DNA of 64,000 nt. Origin: Bdellovibrionales bacterium (GTDB lineage: Bacteria; Bdellovibrionota; UBA1018). The notes under the pieces are model-generated. The model was given only the letters and a program-made list of their open reading frames with translations. It was not told where the DNA came from and did not search any database. The DNA is taken from positions 13,786-77,785 of the forward strand of contig JAEUWC010000021.1 of the NCBI GenBank assembly GCA_016786465.1, in the 5' to 3' direction. Positions within the stretch are counted from its first letter, which is position 1. Each line of letters opens with the position of its first letter. A program made the translations under genes and the position numbers. Below, piece after piece: positions 6,774-61,554 of this stretch.

Positions 6774-8180
6774 TTAATACGTGATTGCGATGATGTCTGG
6801 ACCCACACCGATCGAAGACGTCACCGCTCCTGATAAAAGCCCTGTACCTAAATCCCGACTAAACACCGTGACCGAAGTTCCCGTTCTGTTGGCAGTCACC
6901 ACCAAATTTCCCAAAGACTGGATTCGAACGTCGTTTGGCCCACCACCCGTCGCCCAGTTTCCAAGCGCCGTCAAAGTCCCGTTGGATGGATTGATTGTAT
7001 AGCCGTAAACACGATTTGCTGAATAGGCCGTGATGTATAAGTGCGACCCACTGGGGTCCGTGATGACGCCTGATCCGCTAGACGCGTTGGCCCCGTGGTT
7101 TTCAACGTCGATTTCAGTCAGTGTGCCGTCACTTGAATTCACTGAAAACGCCACTGCGTACCCAGGATTCGAAGCCCCAGCTGCATAGACGTACTGCCCC
7201 GATGGGTGAACGCAGATTCCGTCTGGGCTTGTGGCCACCGAAGTCGCCAAGGTCTGAGGATTCGATAGCGAAAACGACGGTGAAGTATTCACCACGTACT
7301 TGGTCACGCTTGAACTGCCGTTGTCCGCGCTGAAAACAAAGCGACCCAGTGGATCAGCAGCGACCAAACTGACCAGCGATCCAGCAGTATAGTCCGCAAG
7401 CCAAGTCAGTGCACCCGTCACGCTATCCATGCTGTAAGCTTGAATTCTTCCGGTGGCTTCATAAACGCCAGTAAACGCATAGCCCCCGACCGGGCTCACT
7501 GCGATACCCGCAAGCTGCCGGTTGTTCGCCGTGACTTGATTCACGAAGGTTAGATTTCCGGTCGCGTGATCGATGGAAAACCAGTGGACTCGTTTTCCGG
7601 TACCCGAATTGTTGTAGCAAGCGACGTAGACAAACTGGTTGGTTGGATCCACGTCCACTCCATAGGGGTAATCGCAGGTGGCCAAAAAAGGCGTGGTCGT
7701 TGCCGAAACCGCCTTAGTTCCAGAATCGACGACAAAAGAATAGATCCGATCCGTCGATCCCGCAGTGGCGTAAAGGAATGCGTTGTACTTGAATCCGTTC
7801 ACCAGGGTACCCGTCTGACCATCGGGATTCGTTGCAACCACATCCACCACTGCCGCCCCGTGATACGAAATCACGCAGGTCAAGCTGGTCGAACTGACAA
7901 AGGAAACAGATCCGCAAGTCGATCCACCCAATGAAACCGTGGTCGAAGAAGTAAAATTCGTTCCGGTCAAAGTGACCGTGGCGCCGCCGCGAACACCATA
8001 ACTGGAAGGACTGATATTGGTCACCGTGGGAGCAGGCCCAAGATCTTCGACGACCGTTTTGCGCGTCGGCATAGTCTGGCTCTTAAGATTGCAACCGGTT
8101 GCAAAACTTAAGGTCATCGCCAAGCTCACTAGTGCGAATGAACGACTGAAAAAGATGCGCACACGCCTTCCCTTCCCCAA
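6774..8180 (-). CDS. Lipoprotein with N-terminal IPT/TIG-like domain plus beta-propeller repeats (paralog of 5025..6179)
   Basis: Lipobox ATGC. TVTLTGTNFTSSTTVSLGGSTCGSV is IPT-like, followed by YVAC/YVYAAG/LYITAY propeller blades. Confidence 0.6.
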   Translation of the reverse strand: MGKGRRVRIFFSRSFALVSLAMTLSFATGCNLKSQTMPTRKTVVEDLGPAPTVTNISPSSYGVRGGATVTLTGTNFTSSTTVSLGGSTCGSVSFVSSTSLTCVISYHGAAVVDVVATNPDGQTGTLVNGFKYNAFLYATAGSTDRIYSFVVDSGTKAVSATTTPFLATCDYPYGVDVDPTNQFVYVACYNNSGTGKRVHWFSIDHATGNLTFVNQVTANNRQLAGIAVSPVGGYAFTGVYEATGRIQAYSMDSVTGALTWLADYTAGSLVSLVAADPLGRFVFSADNGSSSVTKYVVNTSPSFSLSNPQTLATSVATSPDGICVHPSGQYVYAAGASNPGYAVAFSVNSSDGTLTEIDVENHGANASSGSGVITDPSGSHLYITAYSANRVYGYTINPSNGTLTALGNWATGGGPNDVRIQSLGNLVVTANRTGTSVTVFSRDLGTGLLSGAVTSSIGVGPDIIAITY

Positions 8181-8295
8181 ACTTCATTTTACATGGGAAT
8201 TGGTGCGCCGACAGCGACAATTTTCAGCAAATATTAAGGTCGGATGTCATTGATTTGACGGAAAAATTCAATGGCACCCGTTTAAAAAATGAAGA

Positions 8296-9876
8296 TTAAG
8301 CGGCTTCTTCGCCCGACCGAGCTAGCTTGCGCTTATCCAATCCGTATTTTTCGACCTTCATGATCAGACCCGCTCTGGAAATTCCAAGCTCTTTTGCAAG
8401 CCGGCTTTTATTCCAGTTGGTCCGCTTCAAGCCTTCACGGATCATCGTCTTTTCAAGTTCTTCCAAAGCATCCTTCAGTTTGCCTGCAACGCGAACGCCC
8501 TGAACCTTTGTTGCTTCACCGAACTCGCGAATTCTTGGCGAAAGAAGTTCGGCTGCGACTTTGTCTTCATCACCCGAAAGAACAATCAGACGTTCGATTT
8601 CGTTCTGAAGTTCGCGGATGTTACCTGGCCATGGATAATCCAGGATCTTTTCCATCGCGCGTTTTGCCAGAATCTTTGGCTTCACCTTTTTTTCCTTACA
8701 ACCTTCGGCGACGAAGTGATCGACCAAGATCGGAATGTCTTCTTTGCGGTTACGCAGCGAAGGCACGACCAAGTTGATGACGTTGATGCGGTAATAAAGA
8801 TCTTCACGGAACTGACCTTGTTCGATCATTTCTTTCAGATCTTTGTTGGTTGCAGCGACCACCCGCACGTCGACTTTGATCTGTCCCGTTCCACCGACAG
8901 GAAGAAGCGTTCCTTCTTGAAGAACGCGAAGCAGCTTCACCTGCATCGTCAGCGTCATATCGCCGATTTCATCCAAAAACAGGGTTCCCTTGTTTGCGGC
9001 TTCGAAAAGACCCTTCTTGTCCTTGATCGCGCCCGTAAACGCGCCCTTCACGTGACCGAAAAGTTCGCTATCCAGCAAGTTTTCGTTGAACGCCGAACAG
9101 TTCACGGTGACGAATGGCAGGTCTTTTCGCGCAGAATTATAGTGAATTGCGCGCGCAATCAATTCCTTACCGGTTCCGTTTTCACCTTGGACCAGAACCG
9201 TCGAATCCGAATTCTTGATCTTGTCCAACATCCCGTAAAGTTCTTGCATCGGCTTCGACTTACCGATCATTTGGTCATAGCGATAGCGATGACCCAATTC
9301 CGTATTCAATGCCGTGATGCGCTCTTCGCGCTTTGAAATTTCCGTGTGGAAAGTCACGATTTCCTGCGCGACCAGATCGACCAGCTCGTAGAAGTACTTG
9401 CGCTCTCCACCGCTCAAAACTTTCAATTTACCCAAGGCAGCTGCGAAAGCTTCGCCGTCCAGCCCCAACGCTTCGATCTTTGCGATCGCTTTTGCACGAG
9501 CGTCAGCAGGGATATCTTTTTCGATGATCGAATAAGCGATCACGCTTCCAAAAAAATCGTTTCCAATGGCGATCCTGGAAACGACGACTTGCTCGGCGCC
9601 GCTCGGACCAGGGATGACCAAATGCGCTTGGTCGCTTCCGAAAATCTTTTCATTCGCTTCTTTCATGAAGTTCAAGATCAGTTCACGGCCCTTTTCTTTT
9701 GGAAGCAAGGTTGCCGAAATAGGGTTCTTGAATTCGCGCTGGCGATCTAATGGATCGAAGTTGCGAACCTGTCCGCGTTCATCGACAAAAAAGATTTCAG
9801 TGCTAAACCACTGAGCCAGAATCTCTTCTAGTTTACGAATGACGTGAATGTGCTTCAGCTCTTCCCAATTGATCAT
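8296..9876 (-). CDS. Sigma-54-dependent transcriptional activator (AAA+ EBP with Fis-type HTH) and a non-receiver N-terminal sensory domain
   Basis: Walker [16 protein letters not shown] (GAFTGA-region), C-terminal [19 protein letters not shown]. The ~200 aa N-terminal domain is not a REC domain. Confidence 0.85.
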
Positions 9877-11256: not shown

Positions 11257-11803
11257 AAAAGACATTGCGAATCTGACTACTGGCGTAGCTCGTGAAGCGG
11301 CGGCGAAACTAAAACCCCTGACTTTTAAGGGGAAGAACGATTTCTACAAACGGATCACCGATACCTACGGGGATCTGATCTTTGATCTTAGCCAATCTGT
11401 CCTTTGGTCTCGGCCCAATGCACAGATCGCGTTTCGAAGGGTTCTGAAAACACTTTACCGAAGCAGTCTTTTGGGCCGCTATGCGCGTTACGAAAAAATC
11501 TGGGTCATTCGCGCGACGGTGAATTGTTTAATGGAAATGGCACCACGTTACGGTCGGACCCTTAGTTCCGCTGAAAGGATGATGCTGGACGGCAGTTTCG
11601 ACGCTGAAGGACGGATTCGACAAATTGATTCGTATTTCCATCGTCTGAATCACGAAGACCAAATTCTATTGATCCTTCGAGACAAGTACGAACTGAGCTT
11701 CGAAGATGTTTCTGCCTGCATGAACCTTCCGGTGGGATCTTTAAAGCTGAAGCGGGCACAAGCGCTCAAGGCGCTGGATGAAATGATTTGGGATCACGCA
11801 TGA
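11243..11803 (+). CDS. ECF-type sigma-70 family sigma factor (divergent)
   Basis: Region-2-like FYKRITDTYGDLIFDLSQSVLWSRPNAQIAFRRV and region-4 HTH QILLILRDKYELSFEDVSACMNLPVGSLKLKRAQALKAL. Overlaps the HNH gene by 14 nt. Confidence 0.65.
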   Translation: MATAKKDIANLTTGVAREAAAKLKPLTFKGKNDFYKRITDTYGDLIFDLSQSVLWSRPNAQIAFRRVLKTLYRSSLLGRYARYEKIWVIRATVNCLMEMAPRYGRTLSSAERMMLDGSFDAEGRIRQIDSYFHRLNHEDQILLILRDKYELSFEDVSACMNLPVGSLKLKRAQALKALDEMIWDHA

Positions 11804-12762
11804 CCGATTGCTTTCACTTCACGCAATCCATCACTGACTTCATGGATGGCAAGCTAGCTGCGCCCGAACAGAAAAGTTATTCCAACCACCTCGATTCCTG
11901 CGCGAGCTGTAAAGAACGCTTGGATCATTTCAAGAAAATCACGGCTGCCCTGAAGACTCTCCCTAAGATTCCACTGCCCGCAACCGTGCGTTCTTCGCCG
12001 ATGAGCCAGCAACCGGTTCGCGCCGAAGCCGGCGGCCCCCGACTGGATCCCAATGCAAAACCCGGCTCGAAGAATTGGATCAAGACTCCTTGGTACATCC
12101 GAAGCGGGATGGAAGGGATTGGAATAGCGATTGTCGTGCTTTTGATTGTTGGTGCCGTTCCTCGACTTCGAACCTGGTATGAAACCAGCCTGGAAAAAAG
12201 ACTAGAAAGCTTTAACTTGGCGGACTTTATCAGCAGCCAGTTCGATTCAGACGATTCATCTGCCGACGCAGATCATAAGATGTCGCGAGGTAAAACAGCG
12301 ACTGCCGCGGCCACAGCCGACGGAACTGCTTCAGAAACCCAAGATGAATTTTCAGGTGAAGAAGACGAAGAAGAAGCACAGCCCAAAGGGCGAAAGGACC
12401 GCCCCCTTCGCCTGGGAAATTCCGAAGTCCTTCGTTTCAACGTTTCGACCGACCAGCCTTTGGAATTTCGCTCGAAAGTGATCCAAATTCTCAAAGATTT
12501 GGGCGTTCCTGGGGAAACTCAGGGTATTGGCGGTGTTCAGGCTCCTGGCGGAATTCAATTTGATCTAGTCATCAATAATTCAATCGCTCAGCAGCTTCAA
12601 AAGCAGCTTCAAAAGTTGGCCAGCACCATGCCCAAACAGACCATGTCCAGAAATGGTGTTGAAACCACAACGCGCGAACCGTTTACCTGGTACAAAGTCC
12701 GCTCGCGTAGAAACATCCCGCCCGGAAAAATCCGCGTCGTCATCTGGCTGTTCCAGTACTAG
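11800..12762 (+). CDS. Zinc-binding (ZAS-like) transmembrane anti-sigma factor
   Basis: ATGA overlap with the sigma gene. HLDSCASCKERLDHF (H-x3-C-x2-C) near the N-terminus, one TM helix GIGIAIVVLLIVGAV, an acidic linker and a periplasmic C-terminal domain. Confidence 0.55.
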   Translation: MTDCFHFTQSITDFMDGKLAAPEQKSYSNHLDSCASCKERLDHFKKITAALKTLPKIPLPATVRSSPMSQQPVRAEAGGPRLDPNAKPGSKNWIKTPWYIRSGMEGIGIAIVVLLIVGAVPRLRTWYETSLEKRLESFNLADFISSQFDSDDSSADADHKMSRGKTATAAATADGTASETQDEFSGEEDEEEAQPKGRKDRPLRLGNSEVLRFNVSTDQPLEFRSKVIQILKDLGVPGETQGIGGVQAPGGIQFDLVINNSIAQQLQKQLQKLASTMPKQTMSRNGVETTTREPFTWYKVRSRRNIPPGKIRVVIWLFQY

Positions 12763-13896
12763 TTACATTCTTTGAATTTCGCGAACGAAGCTGATGTCGC
12801 GCTGAATGGTTTGATCCGGAAGATAAACGGGGGTCGACATTTTTGAATTCAGAAGCGCACGCTGCTTCTGATCATTTTCTTCCATCGAATGCTGTGCGTT
12901 TGACGTGGTGGTGGAAGAAATTCGTGCTCCGCCCATGCCTTGATCAGCTGCAGACAAGTACTGACCCCGGGCAGTTTCATAGGCGTCCACCACTTCAACT
13001 TCAACTGCGTATTGATTCGCAAGTGCCTGGTGGGTAGGTGATGACGAAGCATTCCCCGCAGGTGCGCTTCCCGGAACTGGAAGCGCCGATGCCGCCTGAA
13101 GTCCGGCGACCTGCCGTTTCTGATTCAATCCGTTGGCCGACCCTTGCATTCCCTGAATCAAATTGCGGTAGTCCGAAACTGCAGAAAGGTACGCGGCTTC
13201 GTCCAACTTTGCAGTTCCATCGGGGTTTCGATCCACAACGGTAATGTTCCCATGGTCCGGGTGGTCTGGATTTCTCAAAACTTCTTTGAACTTTGGAAAG
13301 TCTTCAGGCTTAGGAAAAGCGTGTCCCAATGCCTGAAAATCCGATGTCTTTCGAATTTCCGAAAGGCCATTCTTGGTGGCCACCTTCAATAGGTCATCGG
13401 TCGAAGGAATTGCCGCGGTCAAAACTTCTTGCGCGCGTTCTTCGGTCTTAAAGATTCGAACCAAGCTATCGGCACCCGCTTGTCCCGTCTTTTTCGCGTA
13501 GTCGACATGAAATTGGGCGGCCGTGTCCTGAGCCCTTCCGATTTCAACACGATTCTGGTTCAGGCGACTTTGAACCAGATTCAAATAATTTTTCTTACAG
13601 TCGGCGTCGGATTCTCCGGGAGCACAAAAGCTTTTCACGGACTTGGGTAACGCCGTGGATGATCCGACTTTCTTCGCTTGGTTGGCCAGATAAACTTCTT
13701 CTACCGACAGCAGACCCTTGGCTTGCTCATGCAAACAGCCCAGTCCACATTCCTTATCGTCGACCGACTTCTTTAGCGCTTGCGCGTAGTTTCCGACCGG
13801 CGCCGCCGATGGCGACGCAGCCAAACCTGACAAAGGGATCAGACCCAGCGCCAGCACTGCGATTGCGATTTTTTTCAGGTGCAAACCAAACGTCAT
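12763..13896 (-). CDS. Hypothetical secreted protein (signal peptide), Cys-containing N-terminal region
   Basis: MTFGLHLKKIAIAVLALGLIPLSGLAASP signal peptide, 377 aa. Convergent with the anti-sigma gene. Confidence 0.5.
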   Translation of the reverse strand: MTFGLHLKKIAIAVLALGLIPLSGLAASPSAAPVGNYAQALKKSVDDKECGLGCLHEQAKGLLSVEEVYLANQAKKVGSSTALPKSVKSFCAPGESDADCKKNYLNLVQSRLNQNRVEIGRAQDTAAQFHVDYAKKTGQAGADSLVRIFKTEERAQEVLTAAIPSTDDLLKVATKNGLSEIRKTSDFQALGHAFPKPEDFPKFKEVLRNPDHPDHGNITVVDRNPDGTAKLDEAAYLSAVSDYRNLIQGMQGSANGLNQKRQVAGLQAASALPVPGSAPAGNASSSPTHQALANQYAVEVEVVDAYETARGQYLSAADQGMGGARISSTTTSNAQHSMEENDQKQRALLNSKMSTPVYLPDQTIQRDISFVREIQRM

Positions 13897-51484: not shown

Positions 51485-52260
51485 GATTTCAGTTTAGCGG
51501 AATCTTGAGAATCGTGGGTTCCGAACCAGTAATCCCACCAAGTGAAGTAAAGGCCGTAGTTATATCGAACCCTAGAGTGATGCAGGTGGTGATTCGATGC
51601 GCTAATCAAGAACCGATTTCCTGGCATTCGAAAGAACCAGCGTGGGTAAATTTCGTAGCCCAGATGATTGATCACACCCAAAAACGTCATCGTCGTCAGG
51701 AAGATGACCAAGATCGCGGGATGGACCGGGACGATCAGAATCAACGCCGGCAAAATGGCTGCTTCCAAAATCGCTTCAGCCCAATGAAATGAAAATGCCG
51801 CCCAAGGCGATGGATTCTTGGATTCATGGTGCACTCGGTGGATCCTGCGAAAAATCTTCGGCACGTGCATCAATCGATGTACCCAGTAAAAGTACGCATC
51901 GTGAAGGAACATCAGAAGGGCAAGGCTGAACCAAGGGTACAATGCCCCGTACTGATTCCAGTCCAAGTAAACCCGGGTAAAACCTTTTTCCCAAAGGATG
52001 AAGCCGGCCGATCCGAAGACCCCAAAGATCAAAGAAGAAAGCGCCGACCACGCAAATTCGTAACGAAGGGTTTCCGGCGGGGGTGTCGCTTTTTCAATCT
52101 TTCGCGCAAAACCAGGCGTCCATTTCCAGATCAGGACGTAAAAACCACCTGCGATCAAAACGTAGCGAAGAAATACAGCGACCGAAAGAAATCCCGAAAG
52201 AAACCCAAAAAGAACCCAAGGATTCTGGGTTGCCTGAAGCAAATCAGCGTAGCCGTTCAC
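51481..52260 (-). CDS. Fatty acid hydroxylase / sterol desaturase superfamily membrane protein
   Basis: His boxes HRLMH, HRVHH and HHLHH with multiple TM helices. Confidence 0.75.
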   Translation of the reverse strand: MNGYADLLQATQNPWVLFGFLSGFLSVAVFLRYVLIAGGFYVLIWKWTPGFARKIEKATPPPETLRYEFAWSALSSLIFGVFGSAGFILWEKGFTRVYLDWNQYGALYPWFSLALLMFLHDAYFYWVHRLMHVPKIFRRIHRVHHESKNPSPWAAFSFHWAEAILEAAILPALILIVPVHPAILVIFLTTMTFLGVINHLGYEIYPRWFFRMPGNRFLISASNHHLHHSRVRYNYGLYFTWWDYWFGTHDSQDSAKLKS

Positions 52261-53273
52261 CCGTGCCCGCCCATCAAGAAAGGCTGACTTAAGAAACGCA
52301 TGTCGCGTTCAGCAGTTCGAATACGAAAAAATTCTTCGGCTTCTTGCCAAAGCGTTTCTGGATTCGGATTTGAAAAAAGCTTCTTGCGAAATTCGTGACA
52401 GCCCGGAAAACCCCATGTGTACCAACCCAAAAACTTTCGTGCATGAATCATCGAAGTTCTTTCGTTGAAATCCGCTTCTAAAAGCTTCTTCTGTTCCAGC
52501 ATCAGCTGAATGTAATCTTCAGCCACCGGATGCGTGTACGACTTGCCTTCCCAAAGGCGCGCAGCTTGTTCAAAAATAAATGGATTCCGAAGCGCACCCC
52601 GACCAATCAAAACGGCATCGACGCCGTACTTCTTCATTTTTTCAACGGCCATTTCAGGCGTCTGGATGTCGCCGTTTCCAATGATCGGCAAAGGGCTTTT
52701 TGCTTTGACGTCAGCGATGAATTCCCAATCAGCCTGGCCGCTGTAACCTTGTGCGCGCGTGCGTCCATGTATCGCAACCCACGCCACGCCGGCGTCAGCA
52801 GCAGCTTTGACCACTTCAACCGCGTTACGAGAACTTTGGTCCCAGCCCGTTCGAATCTTGATCGTGACGGGAATTTTCACGGCCTTGACCATTGCTGAAA
52901 GGATTTGTCCCAGCTGTGCGGGGTTTCTGCACATGGCGCTGCCCGCGCCTTTACTGACTACTTTTGGAACCGGGCATCCCAAGTTCAGATCCACAAAATC
53001 TGCGCCTAATTTTTGAACAAATTCGGCCCCGCGAACCAAACGGCCTTCGTCTTCGCCAAAGATTTGAAGCCCGACGATTCTTTCTTCTTCATGGAACTTC
53101 AAAAGATCGATCGTTTTCTGGCCGCCGTATTCGATGCCGTTAGCCGAAACCAATTCGGAAACGACCAATGAACTTTTCATCCGGCGCATCAGGCGTCGGA
53201 ACGGAGAATTCGTGATCCCCGCCATCGGCGCCAGAATAAAGGGATGCTCGATTTCAAACGGCCCTAACTTCAT
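52257..53273 (-). CDS. tRNA-dihydrouridine synthase
   Basis: LAPMAGITNSPFRRL, GCP and FMN-binding consensus. Confidence 0.85.
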   Translation of the reverse strand: MKLGPFEIEHPFILAPMAGITNSPFRRLMRRMKSSLVVSELVSANGIEYGGQKTIDLLKFHEEERIVGLQIFGEDEGRLVRGAEFVQKLGADFVDLNLGCPVPKVVSKGAGSAMCRNPAQLGQILSAMVKAVKIPVTIKIRTGWDQSSRNAVEVVKAAADAGVAWVAIHGRTRAQGYSGQADWEFIADVKAKSPLPIIGNGDIQTPEMAVEKMKKYGVDAVLIGRGALRNPFIFEQAARLWEGKSYTHPVAEDYIQLMLEQKKLLEADFNERTSMIHARKFLGWYTWGFPGCHEFRKKLFSNPNPETLWQEAEEFFRIRTAERDMRFLSQPFLMGGHG

Positions 53274-53296: not shown

Positions 53297-54619
53297 CTAA
53301 TAAGCGGCCGCGCGGATCCTTTCGATTTCTTCGCGATCTTTCGGAACGTCTTTTGTCAAAACTTCGCAGCCGTTGTCGGTGACCAAAATATCGTCTTCGA
53401 TTCGAATGCCGATGTTCCGAAACGCAGCTGGTGCGTCTTTGTCGGTTGGCTGAACATAGAAACCCGGTTCGATCGTAAAGACCATTCCGGCTTCCAAGCG
53501 GCGAGGTTCGCCGTTCAACTGGTACAGTCCCAGATCATGAACGTCCATTCCCAGCCAGTGACTGGTGCGATGTGGATAAAAGCGCTGGTATTCGTTGGAA
53601 CGCAGAATTTCTTCCGCGTTACCCTTCAATAGTCCAAGCGAAAGGCAGCCTTCGATCAGAATTTCGCAGACCCTGCGGTGAATGTCCGTCATGCGAACCC
53701 CAGGCTGGGTCATCGCGATCGCTTCTTTCTGGGATTTCAAAACCAAGTCGTACGCCTTGGCCTGAGCATCCGTGAATTTTTTCCCCACCGGAAAGGTGCG
53801 GGTGATGTCGGCCGTATAGTAATCCAGTTCACCTCCTGCATCGATCAAAAGAAGGTCGCCGTCTTTCAGAACTTCGTTATTCGAACGGTAGTGAAGACAA
53901 GTCGAATTGCGACCACCGGCGACGATGCTCCCGTAGCCGACGCGCTGACACCCCTGCTTGCGGAACTGATAGTCGATCAAGGCTTCGACTTCGAATTCGT
54001 TCATACCCGGGCGCGTTTGCTTCATGGCTTCCAAATGCGCCATTGCTGAATAATGTCCCGCCTTGCGCATGATCTGGGCTTCTTCAGGGCGCTTGAAGAG
54101 TCGCATTTCGCCAATCGCGGACGAAGGATCCAGAATCGGAGCCAATCCAGTTCCGCTTCGGCCTTGGCTTCTGCGCCAGGTTTCCAGCGCCGAAAGCATT
54201 CGACGGTCTTGCGATTCGTTCAGACCCATTCGGTAATAGACTTTCTCGCAGTTCTTCAAAATTCCGGGAAGGCGCTGATCCAATTCGCTGATCAGGTAGG
54301 CTTCATCGGCGCCAAAAACCTTCAAAGCGCCGTCGATTCCGTAGCGCTCTCCGTCCCACATTTCGCGTTCTTGATCGCGCTTGCGGACAAAAAGGATGGT
54401 CTTAAACGAATTTCCTTCGGGCGCTAGAACCAGGCAGCTTTCGGGTTCTTCAAAGCCAGACAGATAGAAAAAATTGCTTTCTTGGCGGAATGGAAACGGA
54501 ACGTCGGGGTTACGAAGAACTTCTTCGGCGGAAGGAAGAATGAAGCCCGCCGTAGGGTGGGATTTCATCAATTTTTGGCGGCGTTCTTTGAATTGGGGTC
54601 CGACGGATTGAAGAAGCAT
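53297..54619 (-). CDS. pepP: Xaa-Pro aminopeptidase (M24B)
   Basis: M24B consensus metal ligands, HWLGMDVHD. Confidence 0.85.
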   Translation of the reverse strand: MLLQSVGPQFKERRQKLMKSHPTAGFILPSAEEVLRNPDVPFPFRQESNFFYLSGFEEPESCLVLAPEGNSFKTILFVRKRDQEREMWDGERYGIDGALKVFGADEAYLISELDQRLPGILKNCEKVYYRMGLNESQDRRMLSALETWRRSQGRSGTGLAPILDPSSAIGEMRLFKRPEEAQIMRKAGHYSAMAHLEAMKQTRPGMNEFEVEALIDYQFRKQGCQRVGYGSIVAGGRNSTCLHYRSNNEVLKDGDLLLIDAGGELDYYTADITRTFPVGKKFTDAQAKAYDLVLKSQKEAIAMTQPGVRMTDIHRRVCEILIEGCLSLGLLKGNAEEILRSNEYQRFYPHRTSHWLGMDVHDLGLYQLNGEPRRLEAGMVFTIEPGFYVQPTDKDAPAAFRNIGIRIEDDILVTDNGCEVLTKDVPKDREEIERIRAAAY

Positions 54620-54651
54620 CGCCCTGATTTAGCGAAAAAGCGGTGTTATTT

Positions 54652-54690
54652 CAAGCTGTTCCAAATACAGGAACAGCTTGTTCCAAATCC
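54652..54690. promoter_or_regulatory. Perfect 11-bp inverted repeat plus direct repeat in the divergent pepP / HTH-gene intergenic region (putative operator)
   Basis: caagctgttcc-aaataca-ggaacagcttg, then gttccaaatcc repeating gttccaaatac. Confidence 0.45.
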
Positions 54691-54727
54691 CGTTGAAGGC
54701 CAAGGATCATTCTGCGATAAGAATTCT

Positions 54728-55537
54728 GTGCAAACGCCCTCAAACACGAACGAAACCATTGGAAGCGTCAAAGAATTTCTAGCCGAAGAGCTGGATCGAC
54801 GTGTGCGCTTAAATCCCCGATATTCGCTTCGCGCTTTTTCGCGCGACATCGGCCTAAGCCCCGGCGAGCTTTCCGAGATTCTGAATGGTAAGCGCCGCGC
54901 GACCGCCAAGGCCATCATCAAGATTTCTAAGAAGCTAGGATTAAGCCTAGCCGAAACCCAAAGACTTTTGGGATCGACCGCAATTCAGGAAATGGCCATT
55001 CGTAGCCAGATCGATTCAGCCGCGCCCCCGGAACAAGAACTGAGCCTGGACCTTTTTCGAATCGTTTCAGATTGGTACTGCTTTGCGATTTTGAACTTGG
55101 CTGAAACCCGCGATTTTCGCTTTGATCCCCAGTGGATCGCTGCCCGATTAGAAATTGGAACGACCGAAGCCAAGCTAGCGATCGACCGTTTGGAACGGGT
55201 CGGACTGGTTCATCGCGTAAATGGGCAGCTGCAACCCGACCCATCTTTTGTCATGTCGCCTTCTGGGATCCCATCCGATGCGATCCGAAGCTACCATCGC
55301 CAGATTTTGGAAAAAGCGATTCGCGCGCTGGAAACTCAGCCCGTTGAAGAACGTGACATCACGGGCGTGACCTTGGCGTTGGATCCGCGTGACATCCCGA
55401 ACGTGAAACAAGACATCCTGAAATTTCAGAACCAGATCGCCGAGCGCTATTCGAAGGGAAGAAAAACCGAAGTTTACCAAATCGAAACCGCTTTTTTCCG
55501 ACTGACCAAAGCTTCGGCTGCGAAAGGAAACACATGA
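54728..55537 (+). CDS. HTH-domain protein of the TIGR02147 (Fibrobacter/Bdellovibrio paralogous) type; GTG start inferred
   Basis: LRAFSRDIGLSPGELSEILNGKRRATAKAIIKISKKLGLS HTH. ~270 aa. ATGA-coupled to the next gene. Confidence 0.5.
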   Translation: MQTPSNTNETIGSVKEFLAEELDRRVRLNPRYSLRAFSRDIGLSPGELSEILNGKRRATAKAIIKISKKLGLSLAETQRLLGSTAIQEMAIRSQIDSAAPPEQELSLDLFRIVSDWYCFAILNLAETRDFRFDPQWIAARLEIGTTEAKLAIDRLERVGLVHRVNGQLQPDPSFVMSPSGIPSDAIRSYHRQILEKAIRALETQPVEERDITGVTLALDPRDIPNVKQDILKFQNQIAERYSKGRKTEVYQIETAFFRLTKASAAKGNT

Positions 55538-56952
55538 AGAATTTAAAGGTGCCTGCTACTTTCTTAGTCCGAATTTCGGTCGCCGTCCTAGTGGCCCTTC
55601 CGCAGACGGGCTTGGCTATCACCCGGGTCGGCAACGGTGACGACGGAAGCGACCTAGAAGGTTTCGAAGCGTTGACGTCGGGAAAGATTGTCGATTCGCG
55701 CGCCAAGGCGGTCGAATACTTGAAAAGTATGGGAACCCCTGGAATTCGCGGCTTGGGAAAACTTCTTCCCGAAGTAGAAAAAACCAGCCTGTACATAGCC
55801 AAGAAGGATTCGGGGAAAAAGCTGGAAGCGGATCAGGGAACCTTTCACGCCGATATGCGGGGACAGGTTTACGCGCGAACTTTTGCCGAAAGCCACGCGT
55901 CGACGCGTTTTTTTCCCGTGGCCGAAAAGCTGGATGAAGACCAACTGATTGCGCTTCATATTCATGAAGGGCTGCATCGTGCCCTTCACCCCAGTGTTCG
56001 CGAAAACGAATCCGTCGTTTCGGAAATGACGCTTTCGATTGTGAACCCCGACACTTCATACGATCAGATTGCAAGCACGGCAAATCGCCTGCTTCCCAAA
56101 GCCGCTGAATTCGATGCTGCCCCACAGATCTTGATCGCTGCGCAAGGAATGCAGGAAGCACCGGTCGCACCGGCGCCAGCGGGATCCCTGGCGGCGCAGC
56201 CTTCTGTCGTTTCGTACGAACATCGTTTCTACGACAATTCGCAATCCGGAAACGACCGATCGCTGGTCAACAGCATGCACCTGATTCAGGCGCATCTGTA
56301 TCCGTTTGGAAACCTTCGCGATTCATTTGGTCTTGGCCTAGATGCATCGATTGCAAAGCAAGAACGCGGATCGTTCATGGGTCCCCTAGGACTTTCCGCA
56401 AGGTATCGCCTTTGGTCGGGACGCGGGTTTGATGTCGCCGGCTTTGGTGCTCTTTCACTGAACATGCTTTCGCCTGACGAATTAAAAATGACCCGCTTCG
56501 GTCGTGACGTTGCAACCTTGGGGATCAGCATGCGCAAGGATCTTCCAAACAGTTACGTGTCGCTGGACCTGGGCTACATGCTTCCAGGCACTTCGGAAGA
56601 AAGAATCAGCAAAACGACCTACCAGTACGAATACGGCGGGGTTGTAACGACTTCCCTTCGCGTGGGAACACGAATTGGAAAAATTGAACTGGGCGGATTC
56701 GCGGACATCTTCTTGGCGGACTACGTTCGAAACAAAAGCGGTTCTGAAGTTTATTACGACACCGGAAGGTTTCGTATTATGTCTGTCGGTCCTGAAATCA
56801 CTGCCCGGATCAACGAATTTTTCGTCACGGGCTACGGTCGCTTTATCGCAAACGTTTCGCAAACCGATATCGACTTTAAAGATTTGGGTAACCTTCTTTC
56901 GGTCGGATCCGGACAAAGCACTGTCGGCGTTCGCGTCGGCCTGAGGTTCTAG
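55534..56952 (+). CDS. Exported protein with N-terminal HExxH (zincin-like) motif and C-terminal outer-membrane beta-barrel
   Basis: Signal peptide. ALHIHEGLHRALH contains HEGLH. C-terminal amphipathic strands ending ...VGLRF. Confidence 0.5.
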   Translation: MKNLKVPATFLVRISVAVLVALPQTGLAITRVGNGDDGSDLEGFEALTSGKIVDSRAKAVEYLKSMGTPGIRGLGKLLPEVEKTSLYIAKKDSGKKLEADQGTFHADMRGQVYARTFAESHASTRFFPVAEKLDEDQLIALHIHEGLHRALHPSVRENESVVSEMTLSIVNPDTSYDQIASTANRLLPKAAEFDAAPQILIAAQGMQEAPVAPAPAGSLAAQPSVVSYEHRFYDNSQSGNDRSLVNSMHLIQAHLYPFGNLRDSFGLGLDASIAKQERGSFMGPLGLSARYRLWSGRGFDVAGFGALSLNMLSPDELKMTRFGRDVATLGISMRKDLPNSYVSLDLGYMLPGTSEERISKTTYQYEYGGVVTTSLRVGTRIGKIELGGFADIFLADYVRNKSGSEVYYDTGRFRIMSVGPEITARINEFFVTGYGRFIANVSQTDIDFKDLGNLLSVGSGQSTVGVRVGLRF

Positions 56953-56954
56953 TC

Positions 56955-57608
56955 ATGAAAAACTTTTCGAAGATCATCATTTTGGTTTTTTCATACTTAA
57001 GTCTTTCGGCTTGCGAATTCGTCAGCGGAAGTTCGGGCAAAACCGTCACCGATAGCCAACAGTCACGCGAATTCGACGGAATTAAGATGATTGCAGAACA
57101 CATCACTGACCCGATTGACCCAGTATCCATCGATCGCGACATCATGGACGTGGGCCCTAGCAGTCATGTTCTGGTTCGTTACATGGAACTGATGTCGATC
57201 GAATCTGACTTCAGAACTGAATCCGGTCACAAAGTCGAATTGACTTTGGGGACGAATCAAAAGCCCGAAGAAGTCATCAAGACCCTCAAGGCCTGCCCGA
57301 TCACCCAGCTTTGGAATATGCGTGCAACCTGGAACCATCCTTTCGGGTTTCGAAAACAGGGATGGACGCCGGGCGGTGCCTTGGACACCGGAATGTGCGC
57401 AACCGCCACTTTGGTTAAGACTTCGTCTGGGGTTGCGACGGGCGAAATCAGTTTCGACATTACTCCGTGGCTGTTGAACTACGTTCGCGCAAAGCGAATC
57501 AACTATGGCCTTGCGCTGATTTCTGATCTTTCAGTAACTGTTTACGGAAACCAAGACAGCACGCGTTCCCCGCGTATTAAATGGATTAAAACGACGACTA
57601 GCCGCTAG
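56955..57608 (+). CDS. Lipoprotein, hypothetical
   Basis: Lipobox LSAC after a signal peptide. Confidence 0.5.
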   Translation: MKNFSKIIILVFSYLSLSACEFVSGSSGKTVTDSQQSREFDGIKMIAEHITDPIDPVSIDRDIMDVGPSSHVLVRYMELMSIESDFRTESGHKVELTLGTNQKPEEVIKTLKACPITQLWNMRATWNHPFGFRKQGWTPGGALDTGMCATATLVKTSSGVATGEISFDITPWLLNYVRAKRINYGLALISDLSVTVYGNQDSTRSPRIKWIKTTTSR

Positions 57609-57705
57609 TGCGGGTCATTCACGACACATCTATTCGACCCGAGGAAATCCCGTCATCATTGAAACTGTGCCGTACCTGTTTAGTTCGGACGGCCCAGGGG
57701 GAGTC

Positions 57706-58350
57706 ATGAAGGTTTATCGTACATTGGTAGTGGGTCTGACCGTGTTCGGCCTAGGTTCAGTCGTGATCGCGGAAAAGAACGCGGACGCATTTTTAGGTCG
57801 GAAAGCATTCCAAAAATGGAAGGCCAAGCGCGCCGAACGTAAAGCGGCCGGAAAGCCAGTCCTTTTTGGTAAACTGGGTGAACGCTTGAAACAGCGCCGC
57901 GCGGACCGAAGCGCGGCAAAGGACCAGTGCAAAGATCAGAAGGGTTTTGCCAAAATCCGATGCGTGCAGCAAACCGTTCGCGGAATGCGCCAGGATCGCC
58001 GCGCCGAAAACGGTGGCGGTGCTTTTGCGAATTTCCGAAACGGCCAACGCATGCTTGGGCGTGGAATTCAAAACGGAAACATCACGGCGCAGGAACAAGC
58101 TGATCTACAGGCCTTTCGAAATGCCAACAACACTCAGCGCCAGGACCTGCGCCAGCAATACATGTCTGACGGTAGAATGTCGGTCCAAGAGCGGATCGCC
58201 TTTCAAAAGCAGATGTACCAAAACAACAAAGCGTACCGCCATCGCGTTCGAGACGCCTATCGTTCACCAGCTGGACAACTTCAAAGTGTTCCTGTGACTA
58301 GCCAGGGCACGACGAGCAACGTCGGCACCGGTGGCCAGGATGGCGGCTGA
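57706..58350 (+). CDS. Secreted basic Gln/Arg-rich hypothetical protein
   Basis: Signal peptide MKVYRTLVVGLTVFGLGSVVIA. Confidence 0.45.
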   Translation: MKVYRTLVVGLTVFGLGSVVIAEKNADAFLGRKAFQKWKAKRAERKAAGKPVLFGKLGERLKQRRADRSAAKDQCKDQKGFAKIRCVQQTVRGMRQDRRAENGGGAFANFRNGQRMLGRGIQNGNITAQEQADLQAFRNANNTQRQDLRQQYMSDGRMSVQERIAFQKQMYQNNKAYRHRVRDAYRSPAGQLQSVPVTSQGTTSNVGTGGQDGG

Positions 58351-58360
58351 TTTTTCTAAA

Positions 58361-59467
58361 TTAGCTTGAAGCGCTGAGAACGCCTCGACGAACTTGGTCG
58401 CGTTCGATTGCTTCGAAAAGCGCTTTGAAATTGCCTTCGCCAAATCCTTTGTTCCCTTTTCTTTGAATGAATTCAAAGAAGAAAGGCCCTAGAATTTCTT
58501 CAGAAAAGATCTGAAGCAGGTAACCTTCGCCTTCGCCATCCAGCAAAATGCCCAGGTCTTCCAATTGGTTCAGGTCTTCGGTGACGCCCGGAACGCGGGT
58601 CGGTACCACTTCGTAATAAGAATGCGGAACGGTTAGAAACTTAAAGCCATTGGCGCGCAACTTAGAAAGCGTGTCGATGATTCCGGTAGTCAGAAACGCC
58701 AGGTGTTGTACGCCAGGGCCTTTCAAACGTTCGACGAATTCCTGAACCTGGCTTGCCGGTTCGGTAGCTTCGTTGATCGGTACAGTGATCTTGAAATCGC
58801 GCGACTGAACCACATCAGAAATCAGACCCGTACGACCGGTGGTGATATTGAAATGACGAGTGACGGTGAAATCAAAGACCTTCTTGTAGAATTCAACCCA
58901 CTTCTTCATTTCGCCAATCGATACGTTATTCGTCAGGTGGTCGATCACGCGGATGCCAAATGGCGACGGGCTTTCTAGACGCGAAACGATCAGGTCTTCG
59001 TCAAACAAGAACCCAGACGTCAGCGATTTCGAACTTTTTCTTTCAATGAAAGCATAGCGAAGATTTCCCGGGGTCCAGATTTCTGCACGAACCAGGCGGC
59101 CTTCTGTCGTTTCAATCGTTTTCGGTTCCATGGCCGAACGAGCCCCGTTCGCCAATGTCGCTTGGTAAGCGGCCTTGGCATCGGACACGTCGACTGCCAA
59201 AACGCAAACACCTTCGTCTTGGGCGTCCAGGAACTGAACGGCTTTGTCGGACTTGGACTGCGGAAGCCCCAGCGATTCAGTCAGAAGAATACGCACGTAC
59301 CCTTGGGCATAAACCACCGTGCGGGTGCCGCGATTTTCTGAACGCCTTTCACCGATTTTCTCAAAGCCCATGCGTGTGTAAACGCCTTCGCGTTCACTGA
59401 TCTTTCGAACGATGAATTCGACGTGATCAAACCCTTGGTTTTGAATTTTAAATTCGGCGGCGGACAT
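58361..59467 (-). CDS. hppD: 4-hydroxyphenylpyruvate dioxygenase
   Basis: Two VOC/glyoxalase-like domains. C-terminal ...FFEFIQRKG..GFGEGNFKALFEAIE consensus. Confidence 0.85.
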   Translation of the reverse strand: MSAAEFKIQNQGFDHVEFIVRKISEREGVYTRMGFEKIGERRSENRGTRTVVYAQGYVRILLTESLGLPQSKSDKAVQFLDAQDEGVCVLAVDVSDAKAAYQATLANGARSAMEPKTIETTEGRLVRAEIWTPGNLRYAFIERKSSKSLTSGFLFDEDLIVSRLESPSPFGIRVIDHLTNNVSIGEMKKWVEFYKKVFDFTVTRHFNITTGRTGLISDVVQSRDFKITVPINEATEPASQVQEFVERLKGPGVQHLAFLTTGIIDTLSKLRANGFKFLTVPHSYYEVVPTRVPGVTEDLNQLEDLGILLDGEGEGYLLQIFSEEILGPFFFEFIQRKGNKGFGEGNFKALFEAIERDQVRRGVLSASS

Positions 59468-59526: not shown

Positions 59527-61554
59527 TTAATGCGTCATCCGGGTTGTGCCGGATTCAGTTGGGTTTTCACCTGTTCCAGGCGGCTGCGTGACCAAGCCCT
59601 GACGAGCCGTCACTTCTTCAATCGACTGTTGCAAGTGTTTCGACTGGCGATCCATGTCCATGTAAGTGTAACCGTGCAGAACTTCTTCGTAGAAGTTTTG
59701 AAGATCGACACCTTCACGGGGCTTGATTGCTCCTTCGCGAACTTTGGTATCGATTTGTTCCTTCATGCGTTTAGCAAGATCGGTCGAACTGTACTGAATC
59801 CAGGACAGAACGCCTGCGATGTTGTTCCCCTTGATGACTTCTTCAATGTAGTAGCCACCCGGTTCGGTTTCGTCCAAGAAGACGTGAACTTCATTCACAC
59901 GACCGAATAGGTTGTGAAGGTCGCCCATGATGTCCTGGTACGCGCCCATCAGGAAGAACCCCAAGTAGTAGGGTTCGTTTGCTTTCAATGCATGAAGCGG
60001 AAGAGTGTCCTTGATGTCGCGAAGGTCGATGAACTTATTCACCTTGCCGTCGGAATCACAGGTGATGTCGACCAACGTCGTCGTCCGCGCGGGTTCTTCA
60101 TCCAGACGATGAATCGGAACAATCGGGAACAACTGCTGAATCGCCCAGTGATCCGGCATCGACTGAAAGATCGAAAAGTTACACAGGAACTGATCGGCCA
60201 GGTGCTTGTTCAATGCTTCAACTTCATCTGGGACGTACTTTAGGCCCGACGCATTCTTGTACAGAACTTTGCAGATCTGCCAAAAAAGGTATTCAACCTT
60301 GGCTTTGTCTTCCAAAGACAGAATGCCCAGCTTGAACATCGACAGCGCTTCTTCTTTTCGTTGAAGAGCATCGTGATAATGTTCCAGCAAGTTCTTTTGG
60401 GTCAGGTTGTGCATCAGATAACGCATTTCCTTGACCACATCTTCTTCATCTGGACTTTCGTCCAAACCAATCGGCGTTGCACCGACTTCGATCGAACCGA
60501 AAACGTTTACGATCAAAGCCGAATGGTGCGCGACAATTGCGCGACCACTTTCGGTGACGATGTTCGGTTCTGGAACTTCTTCAGCCTGACAAATTTCCAG
60601 GATCGAATACACGACGTCGCTGACGTATTCCGATAGCGAGTAGTTGATCGAGCTATCGAAGTTCGTACGAGATCCGTCGTAATCGACGCCCAATCCGCCG
60701 CCGACATCCAAGAATTCCAGATTCAAGCCCATTTTGCGAAGCTTCGAATAGATCCGGGTTCCTTCTTTAACGGCGTCCTTGATCGACTTGATGTTGGTGA
60801 TTTGTGAACCGATGTGGAAGTGCAGAAGTTTGAAGCTGTCTTGCAATCCTTCTTGGCGAAGGATGTTCACGGCTTGCAGAAGTTCTGGGGTGGTCAGGCC
60901 GAATTTCGCGAATTCGCCGCCGGAAGTTTCCCACTTGCCGCTGCCTTTGGAATAAAGCTTCGTGCGAATGCCGATCAAAGGCGTCACACCGACTTCCTTT
61001 GCAACGGTAATGACCTGGTAAAGTTCGCTGAGCTTTTCAACGACTACGATCACGCGCTTGCCCAGCTTGATCCCCATCATCGCCGTTTTGATGAAAGCGT
61101 AGTCCTTGAAGCCGTTACAGATGATCAAGGAATTTGGCGTGGTCGGCATCGAAATCACGGCCGTCAATTCGGCCTTCGATCCGGCTTCCAAGCCGTAGTC
61201 ATAAGGGCGTCCAGCGTCTAGGATTTCTTCGACGACTTCGCGCATCTGGTTCACCTTGATCGGGTAAACGCCTTGGTATTTTCCTTTGTAGCCGTGTTCC
61301 GCGATGGACTTGCGGAAAGCTTCGTTCAAAGTCACCACCCGGTGGCGGATGATGTCCTGGAATCGGATCAGGACTGGAAGCCCTAACCCCTGTGATCGGA
61401 CTTCTTCGATCACGGAAAGAAGATCAATCCCTGGGCCTTCGCCTCGACGCGGGTGAACGGTCATGTCGCCGGCCGGGTTGATACTGAAATACTGGTCCCC
61501 CCAGCCCTCGATATTAAACAGCTTTAAAGAATCGGAGACTCCCCAACTTCTCAT
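59527..61554 (-). CDS. speA: Biosynthetic arginine decarboxylase
   Basis: 675 aa. PLP-dependent Orn/DAP/Arg decarboxylase family with the SpeA-specific N- and C-terminal regions. Confidence 0.85.
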   Translation of the reverse strand: MRSWGVSDSLKLFNIEGWGDQYFSINPAGDMTVHPRRGEGPGIDLLSVIEEVRSQGLGLPVLIRFQDIIRHRVVTLNEAFRKSIAEHGYKGKYQGVYPIKVNQMREVVEEILDAGRPYDYGLEAGSKAELTAVISMPTTPNSLIICNGFKDYAFIKTAMMGIKLGKRVIVVVEKLSELYQVITVAKEVGVTPLIGIRTKLYSKGSGKWETSGGEFAKFGLTTPELLQAVNILRQEGLQDSFKLLHFHIGSQITNIKSIKDAVKEGTRIYSKLRKMGLNLEFLDVGGGLGVDYDGSRTNFDSSINYSLSEYVSDVVYSILEICQAEEVPEPNIVTESGRAIVAHHSALIVNVFGSIEVGATPIGLDESPDEEDVVKEMRYLMHNLTQKNLLEHYHDALQRKEEALSMFKLGILSLEDKAKVEYLFWQICKVLYKNASGLKYVPDEVEALNKHLADQFLCNFSIFQSMPDHWAIQQLFPIVPIHRLDEEPARTTTLVDITCDSDGKVNKFIDLRDIKDTLPLHALKANEPYYLGFFLMGAYQDIMGDLHNLFGRVNEVHVFLDETEPGGYYIEEVIKGNNIAGVLSWIQYSSTDLAKRMKEQIDTKVREGAIKPREGVDLQNFYEEVLHGYTYMDMDRQSKHLQQSIEEVTARQGLVTQPPGTGENPTESGTTRMTH

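Follow-up and report, generated by a model that had tools for sequence, protein, structure and literature searches.

A conserved Bdellovibrionota operon joins a TIGR02147/DUF4423 regulator to a predicted outer-membrane barrel protein with an HExxH domain

Introduction

The TIGR02147/DUF4423 proteins are a large family, paralogous in Fibrobacter and Bdellovibrio, for which our literature search found no functional study, the only mention being a table entry for Bd3700 in the B. bacteriovorus proteome; we likewise found no published operator, regulon or partner for it. A search combining Bdellovibrio with HEXXH found nothing relevant. Here we analyse a 64,000-nucleotide (nt) stretch of DNA from a Bdellovibrionales bacterium (contig JAEUWC010000021.1), called the window at its full length, in which a gene of this family heads an operon that also encodes a 472-amino-acid (aa) exported protein with an HExxH motif and a lipoprotein.

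Several described systems resemble parts of this operon. Genes for Xre-type helix-turn-helix (HTH) proteins adjoin genes for HExxH proteins in Xre-ImmA/IrrE (COG2856, M78) and BlaI/BlaR1, as they do here. Minimal zincins have a backing helix, a sheet, an active-site helix and a glutamate helix in that order, and the M48-type and minimal gluzincins (3c37; the BepA/LoiP type) carry HExxH on one helix and the Glu on the next. With regard to barrels, type Va autotransporters (EstA, AaaA, EspP) combine an N-terminal enzyme-like domain with a C-terminal barrel, while Slam/TbpB and FapF/FapC are translocator-substrate pairs.

Results

A three-gene cassette conserved in Bdellovibrionota

The operon is real, conserved, self-contained and uncharacterised. 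It is an envelope operon of Bdellovibrionota with a three-gene core (regulator, HExxH barrel protein and lipoprotein) that was seen only in Bdellovibrio-like bacteria. The core genes in the window are:

54728 to 55537, plus strand: regulator gene, TIGR02147/DUF4423, 269 aa from GTG 54728, its most likely start (HMM matches; GTG start conserved in locus L007)
55534 to 56952, plus strand: gene for the 472-aa predicted outer-membrane protein (alignment, AlphaFold2 model, Foldseek)
56955 to 57608, plus strand: gene for the 217-aa lipoprotein, lipobox LSAC (alignment of the family)

The stop of the regulator gene and the start of the barrel gene overlap as ATGA at 55534-55537, and a gap of 2 nt precedes the lipoprotein gene. 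We examined eleven independent loci, namely the window, L001, L003, L005, L007, L008, L009, L010, L012, L028 and L076 (L-numbers are related loci and P-numbers library proteins compared; L019 is on the same contig as L009 and hence was not counted separately). The HTH gene lies directly 5' of the barrel gene in all eleven, mostly with a 4-nt overlap, and the lipoprotein gene is next after the barrel gene in nine of the ten loci whose downstream part is complete; the lists of barrel and lipoprotein homologues also have at least 20 contig sizes in common. The genes flanking the cassette differ and are unrelated between loci, the upstream neighbours being pepP, a shikimate-kinase-like gene, a PIF1 helicase, an integrase region and a catalase. 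Within the window we found no paralogues of the three core genes, and the base composition does not indicate recent horizontal acquisition. The organisms with the cassette are mostly uncultured, and no member of the family came up under the name of a cultured Bdellovibrio in the homologue and genome searches. Two library proteins, P0182 (766 aa) and P0137 (621 aa), have the DUF4423 regulator fused to the HExxH-barrel protein, with the signal peptide mid-protein; a frameshift or a gene-calling error at the ATGA overlap is the most likely cause.

All the features listed in a first-pass annotation of this locus are present in the sequence. The HTH protein, which it called TIGR02147-like, is a true TIGR02147/DUF4423 member: in hidden Markov model (HMM) searches it matches NCBIfam TIGR02147 with 107.7 bits (E 7e-31, profile positions 11-271 of 272, curated cut-off 50 bits) and PF14394/DUF4423 with 148.1 bits (E 2.7e-43, aa 101-259, cut-off 30), and its Xre-type HTH matches PF01381 HTH_3 with 33.6 bits (E 4e-08, aa 25-76, cut-off 23). 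A faint winged-helix-like signal lies within the DUF4423 domain, and neither a signal peptide nor a membrane segment could be read from the sequence. The ATGA coupling to an exported protein, the N-terminal HEGLH and C-terminal Phe-ending barrel of the latter, the lipoprotein as part of the same unit and a dedicated regulator with an operator ahead of it, all described in that annotation, hold as well on the evidence given here and below.

An outer-membrane barrel on a flexible linker

The 472-aa protein has the same sequence as MBL7716120.1 (JNL01_11705), a 'hypothetical protein' by annotation, and founds an unannotated family restricted to Bdellovibrionota. Its 125 homologues are nearly all 430-510 aa and without Pfam domain or informative name; those named come from Bdellovibrionales or from Bdellovibrionota metagenome-assembled genomes (MAGs). 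Neither the window protein nor 50 family members gave a match in Pfam and NCBIfam. The parts of the protein are:

aa 1-28: signal peptide, cleavage after GLA (read from the sequence)
aa 32-42, nt 55627-55659, plus strand: motif VGNGDDGxDLE (alignment of 50 sequences)
aa ~33-188 (~155 aa): HExxH domain (N-domain), with HEGLH at aa 144-148, nt 55963-55977, plus strand
aa ~189-221: flexible linker (AlphaFold2)
aa ~222-472: predicted β-barrel ending in F (AlphaFold2, Foldseek)

A full-length AlphaFold2 (AF2) model on the 50-sequence alignment, with a predicted local distance difference test score (pLDDT) of 88, has an α/β N-domain (~44-188) and an all-β C-terminal half, in which the barrel region is mostly above 90. 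When the barrel half was compared with the PDB by Foldseek, 126 matches had E ≤ 0.001, and the top 50 listed were all outer-membrane barrels. The best was the FapF secretion channel (5o68, E 2e-10, template modelling (TM) score 0.66-0.71 normalised to target); the COG4313 channel 4rl8 matched with E 5e-6 and TM 0.68 (same normalisation), and the β-domains of the autotransporters EspP, BrkA and AaaA with E 5e-7 to 1e-5. As modelled, the C-terminal half is thus an outer-membrane β-barrel, predicted to have 12 or 14 strands. The C-terminal residue is F in 37 of the 50 homologues and F, W or Y in 43. The linker region has pLDDT 43-66 (below 50 at aa 194-208); in the family it is 10-45 aa long (median 28), Ala/Ser/Glu/Pro-rich and not conserved.

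Signal peptide, enzyme domain, linker and C-terminal barrel also make up the type V layout, and the protein could be a minimal type Va autotransporter whose HExxH passenger is threaded through its own 12-stranded barrel to become a surface-displayed or released protease. The matches to EspP, BrkA and AaaA and the aromatic C-terminal residue speak for this; however, no member matches the Pfam autotransporter β-domain model (PF03797), the barrels of FapF and of COG4313 are closer matches, the AF2 model has neither an α-helix ahead of strand 1 nor a pore helix, the linker is of low pLDDT, not conserved and down to 10 aa, and a passenger of ~155 aa is very small and not a β-helix. We regard an autotransporter as unlikely. 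A periplasm-facing N-domain tethered to the outer membrane is favoured from the model, because a classical autotransporter needs a pore-spanning helix, of which none is predicted, and because the linker is short and not conserved.

The HExxH domain and its relatives

In the alignment N34, G38, D40 and L41, all in VGNGDDGxDLE, are invariant in 50/50 sequences, and so are R115, F126, Q137, H144, E145, H148, R149, E159 and D177. The VGNGDDGxDLE motif starts 3-4 residues past the predicted signal-peptide cleavage site and might act as a latency (Asp-switch-like) segment or form a Ca-binding turn. A separate AF2 model of aa 33-197 (pLDDT 90.8, predicted TM score 0.87) shows, in order, helix 51-66, a short helix 77-83, strands 86-88, 114-116 and 124-126, helix 135-150 and the E159 helix. 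HEGLH sits on helix 135-150 with pLDDT >90 in the AF2 models, and E159 opens helix 159-170, 10 residues after H148 (HExxH-x10-E). This modelled order is as expected for a minimal zincin. The best Foldseek match in the PDB was 3c37, an M48-type putative Zn peptidase (E 0.35, TM 0.34, not significant), followed by further weak matches to IrrE (3dti), NleC, PepO, DPP III, myroilysin and an HExxH oxygenase domain. In the BFVD the best was a phage 'metallopeptidase domain' protein (E 0.066, probability 0.80), and others were named metallopeptidase and SprT-like. The enrichment of zincins among weak matches in two structure libraries is suggestive, and a zincin fold of the modelled domain is plausible.

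We also considered that the HExxH domain is structural or binding rather than a hydrolase, and that the repeats ahead of the regulator gene (next section) form an RNA hairpin or the site of another, global regulator. As to the domain, the want of a significant zincin match and distant relatives with lost His (EEALH in P0222, HEALY in P0225, HELLR in L055) agree with this; however, none of the 50 barrel-type members departs from HExxH, E159 or D177. Taken with what the repeats show below, this alternative appears quite unlikely.

An N-domain profile searched against 1.84 billion clustered representatives found 135 proteins, 95 of them below E 1e-30 and essentially all barrel-type. The weaker matches are shorter, barrel-less subfamilies without Pfam domain, one of 280-330 aa with GNGTG…LEGF…HEALHRALPxPMNxxE and another of 345-381 aa with GNGDLDGIY…LIHEAxHRLEF; GNGxG…LEG is retained in these, and a distant subfamily without barrel has the same HExxH-x10-E spacing. 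P0228 (L073), the only barrel-less protein with readable context, lies directly behind a DUF4423 gene and overlaps it. A variant operon in a Pseudobdellovibrionaceae MAG (L055, 2540-5046) consists of the operator, a 222-aa secreted protein, a DUF4423 regulator and a 344-aa secreted protein, the last ATGA-coupled to the DUF4423 gene and carrying GNGGD and a degenerate FHELLR in which the second His is lost; the profile does not detect this 344-aa protein, whose kinship rests on these two motifs. Its C-terminus and the 222-aa protein have a Cys-containing domain in common (28% identity, E 9e-10). Since barrel-less proteins adjoin DUF4423 genes in L073 and L055, what is conserved as a unit is apparently a DUF4423 regulator with an exported N-domain protein, the barrel being one of several C-terminal options. 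Local autoregulated co-expression is the simplest reading of this coupling between a cytoplasmic regulator and an exported domain.

A predicted three-half-site operator ahead of the regulator gene

The intergenic repeats and the promoter-like hexamers behind them are:

54657 to 54662, plus strand: operator half-site 1, TGTTCC, inside the left arm of the 11-nt inverted repeat
54670 to 54684, plus strand: core dyad GGAACA-GCT-TGTTCC (half-sites 2 and 3), N3 invariant in all loci
54693 to 54721, plus strand: putative promoter (inferred), −35-like TTGAAG 54693-54698, 17-nt spacer, −10-like GATAAG 54716-54721

Together, the inverted and the direct repeat make up a single element with three TGTTCC half-sites, of which the first and third run forward and the second in reverse. 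The first-pass annotation had given a perfect 11-bp palindrome plus a tandem repeat. The arms, CAAGCTGTTCC (54652-54662) and GGAACAGCTTG (54670-54680), are indeed 100% complementary, but a 7-nt spacer interrupts them; the direct repeat TGTTCCAAAT does occur twice, at 54657 and 54679, but its copies, 22 nt apart, interleave with the right arm and are not strictly in tandem. In the window neither the exact inverted repeat nor the exact dyad GGAACAnnnTGTTCC occurs a second time. An A-rich tract, AAAT, directly follows the dyad to 54688, and the consensus of the element is TGTTCC-N6/7-GGAACA-N3-TGTTCC-AAA(A). The spacing of half-sites 1 and 2 varies from 4 to 8 nt across loci and that of half-sites 2 and 3 is always 3 nt; therefore the rigid core is the 15-bp dyad GGAACA-N3-TGTTCC, in the window GGAACAGCTTGTTCC, and the 11-bp inverted repeat (half-sites 1 and 2) is the less constrained pair.

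The element is conserved in 12 loci (11 independent), more than chance. It is present in the window, L007, L008, L009, L001, L010, L012 and L028 and in the longer operon variants L005 and L055, and is degenerate in L003 (TGTTTC/GAAACA/CGTTCC). The hexamers are invariant while spacers and flanks vary between loci; in the 82%-identical relative L007 the arms are perfectly conserved, and loop and flanks differ. Because the upstream neighbours of the loci are unrelated, the element travels with the cassette. L076 has TGCTCC/GGAGCA in all three half-sites of two separate copies, at 2514-2528 and 3200-3214, the first of which precedes an extra 183-aa lipoprotein gene with the usual −35/−10 layout. 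Half-sites that change in concert are what one would expect of an operator with a cognate regulator, and we propose that the regulator binds its own operator.

As RNA, the inverted repeat of the window would fold at −22.8 kcal/mol (z −4.2), which would suit a hairpin or attenuator. We rejected this as the main explanation and treat the element as a protein-binding site because the hexamers are invariant, the stems outside them do not co-vary and the stems are only 6-9 bp in other loci. The fixed 3-nt spacing of half-sites 2 and 3 is what a dyad bound by protein would have, the hairpin is weakened further by the position of the element ahead of the predicted transcription start, and the L076 half-site change travels with the cassette, against both an RNA element and the site of another regulator.

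A scan of 185,579 species genomes with the exact motif gave 62 loci. In Bdellovibrionota-type genomes all of them (L010, L012, L019, L028, L055) precede a DUF4423 operon; most of the 62 are unrelated repeats in Prevotella and Bathyarchaeota. TGTTCC-N6/7-GGAACA-N3-TGTTCCAA recurs in the Prevotella/Prevotellaceae MAGs L011, L017, L018, L042, L044, L047, L053, L062, L065 and L067, where the Prevotella copies form arrays with a 22-nt period, and the same exact string is found in many Bathyarchaeota MAGs within L020-L069. These copies are probably lineage-specific repeat families unrelated to the operon.

The putative −10, GATAAG, ends 6 nt before GTG 54728, and a Shine-Dalgarno sequence is absent. 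Read by eye, the same layout (TTGnnn 8-9 nt past the dyad, ~17 nt, then [G/C]ATAA[G/A/C]) is seen in the window, L007, L008, L009, L001, L055, L012 and the first L076 operator, and the start codon follows the −10-like hexamer by ~3-9 nt in the window, L007, L008, L001 and L010, which suggests that the regulator mRNA may be leaderless or near-leaderless. The σ70/terminator scanner found no convincing terminator inside the operon. If the promoter assignment is right, the dyad centre would lie near −52 and half-site 1 near −72. A site so placed would precede the core promoter without covering it, and activation or positive autoregulation would be at least as likely as repression.

A conserved lipoprotein partner

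The lipoprotein is a conserved partner of the barrel gene. Its lipobox Cys20 (LSAC) is invariant in 36/36 sequences, and C114 and C148 are nearly invariant. The window protein matches DNRLRE NF033679 with 16.1 bits (E 0.009), below the 34-bit cut-off, and 20 of the 36 relatives weakly match the DNRLRE domain (best E 2.6e-6). DNRLRE corresponds to CBM96, an alginate-binding module (PMC9971899). By these matches the lipoprotein is possibly a distant DNRLRE/CBM96-like β-sandwich, with membership below the cut-off.

That the barrel is instead a FapF- or Slam-like export channel for the lipoprotein or another unfolded substrate, with the HExxH domain as a periplasmic processing or gating module, is very unlikely: the best structural match is to FapF, the conserved, tight barrel-lipoprotein gene pair may be likened to a translocator-substrate pair and variable accessory exported genes lie in the same operons, but a FapF-type coiled-coil or plug helix is absent, no fap-type genes lie near the cassette in the loci examined, a Slam/DUF560 signal was not seen in the family, L003 has the barrel without a lipoprotein, and the N-domain also exists without a barrel.

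Accessory genes and neighbours

Two further genes bound the core:

53297 to 54619, minus strand: pepP, M24 Xaa-Pro aminopeptidase, divergent from the operon
57706 to 58350, plus strand: accessory gene for a 214-aa secreted K/R/Q-rich protein, start ATG 57706 (GTG 57667 in the open reading frame listing)

The pepP-regulator intergenic gap is 108 nt. ATG 57706 is preceded by GGGGGAG and is likely the true start of the basic gene, rather than the listed GTG 57667; with this start, 97 nt separate it from the lipoprotein gene. The basic protein, the secreted Q/R-rich protein of the first-pass annotation, does have a signal peptide, but its sole homologue is in L007, so that it is not a conserved member of the unit: it is a lineage-specific accessory outside the cassette. 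Accessory exported genes differ by locus and are mutually unrelated; this fourth gene and the extra upstream genes of L005, L055 and L076 were rejected as core since they are not mutually homologous.

Scans with Pfam, NCBIfam, PADLOC and PHROGs gave no match for the barrel protein, the lipoprotein or the basic protein, apart from the weak DNRLRE match of the lipoprotein. A defence or prophage origin was rejected because the HTH protein has just generic HTH matches in PADLOC and PHROGs.

The cassette adjoins a 4-hydroxyphenylpyruvate dioxygenase gene in the window (58361-59467, minus strand) and in L007, and that of L003 is flanked by homogentisate dioxygenase and biopterin-dependent hydroxylase genes (7457-8593, 11799-13386). 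That Tyr/Phe catabolism genes lie beside the cassette in genomes so distant from each other could reflect a remnant of synteny or chance. Housekeeping neighbours on the minus strand, biosynthetic arginine decarboxylase (59527-61554) and tRNA-dihydrouridine synthase (52257-53273), are both syntenic in L007.

Discussion

The best overall explanation, and in our judgement a probable one, is a regulator-operated envelope operon for a tethered metal-enzyme barrel and a carbohydrate-binding module (CBM)-like lipoprotein. The regulator would bind TGTTCC-N6/7-GGAACA-N3-TGTTCC-AAA just upstream of the −35 of its own leaderless promoter and would so control its own synthesis and that of the two translationally coupled downstream genes. 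The second gene product would leave the cytoplasm by the Sec route and sit in the outer membrane by way of its C-terminal β-barrel (12-14 strands), with the ~155-aa N-domain hanging on the Ala/Ser/Glu/Pro-rich tether, most likely on the periplasmic side. The N-domain may be a minimal gluzincin-like metal enzyme with H144, H148 and E159 as metal ligands and E145 as catalytic base. The lipoprotein, with a putative CBM-like β-sandwich, would be the barrel protein's substrate, its targeting subunit or its regulator.

Several results weigh against this explanation. The N-domain has no significant structural match to any peptidase (Foldseek E ≥0.066, TM 0.2-0.4), neither it nor 10 distant relatives gave a match in Pfam and NCBIfam, and PDB sequence searches with the full-length and N-domain profiles retrieved designed helical repeat proteins only. 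One locus, L003, has the barrel gene without the lipoprotein gene. The second L076 operator lies 25 nt before the regulator ATG and misfits a single simple layout. A σ70 consensus scanner calls no promoter in the region, since position 6 of the −10 is not T. Finally, the exact operator string is also in the unrelated Prevotella and Bathyarchaeota repeats, so that its sequence alone is not diagnostic and becomes so only with a downstream HTH gene.

The first-pass annotation had suggested a surface or secreted zincin-like protease, plausibly related to predation. The protease is supported weakly, by the helix order and the weak metallopeptidase matches, and not by a significant structural or HMM match. 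A surface or secreted location is less likely than a periplasm-facing tether, given a linker of down to 10 aa and no pore helix. Nothing in the analysis ties the operon to predation.

More speculatively, the DUF4423 regulator and a coupled exported GNG…HExxH-x10-E protein might be a general, unrecognised two-component-like envelope module in which the metal enzyme makes or destroys an envelope signal and the regulator senses it; we give this only a small probability. The signal might, for instance, be a fragment of peptide or glycan that the CBM-like lipoprotein helps to bind, its sensing would close a feedback loop, and the FapF-like pore of the barrel form could in addition be an exit for the product or the lipoprotein. 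Such a module would cover the barrel C-terminus, the non-barrel C-terminus of L073 and the degenerate variant L055 that the profile leaves undetected.

Among the new features, the one of most use is an operator by which an orphan regulator family can be tested: for the many paralogues of TIGR02147/DUF4423, the conserved site gives a first testable target, co-evolving with the cassette and held in a fixed promoter geometry. In addition, three families without Pfam/NCBIfam model are defined, each with invariant residues: the HExxH N-domain, its barrel-fused form and the partner lipoprotein. Should the N-domain prove enzymatically active, a phylum already noted for enzymes that remodel envelopes would gain a new minimal zincin lineage, one held at the outer membrane by a tether.

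Compared with the TIGR02147/DUF4423 family, the regulator passes both curated thresholds and has the N-terminal HTH_3; unlike the family as published, it is predicted here to have a three-half-site operator and an obligatory downstream secreted partner. In contrast to Xre-ImmA/IrrE, there is no M78/M56 HMM match, and gene order and translational coupling differ. The analogies to Xre-ImmA/IrrE and BlaI-BlaR1 fail on localisation, because a partner with a cleavable signal peptide and a predicted outer-membrane barrel is unable to reach a cytoplasmic repressor. DNRLRE/CBM96 is a module of carbohydrate-active enzymes, whereas the lipoprotein here stands alone.

The barrel can be likened to those of FapF, COG4313 channels and autotransporters but is a member of none. 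It is structurally closest to the FapF/COG4313 channels, with which it has an N-terminal periplasmic extension on a flexible linker in common; unlike FapF, the protein is without coiled-coil, plug helix or fap operon, and identity is ~10%. With type Va autotransporters it has the domain arrangement and a barrel match of E ~1e-6 in common, but not PF03797 or the pore helix, and the linker is short and variable and the passenger tiny. The N-domain, for its part, looks like a minimal gluzincin in its motif but matches no curated peptidase family model. As in the M48-type enzymes, HExxH is on a helix and the Glu on the next in the AF2 models, and, like the BepA/LoiP-type enzymes, it would have an envelope location, with a backing helix, three strands and an active-site helix. 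It differs from gluzincins in a His-to-Glu spacing of only 10 and in its own invariant VGNGDDGxDLE motif, and it is fused to a predicted β-barrel, whereas M48-type envelope enzymes are fused to a lipid anchor or a tetratricopeptide repeat (TPR) domain.

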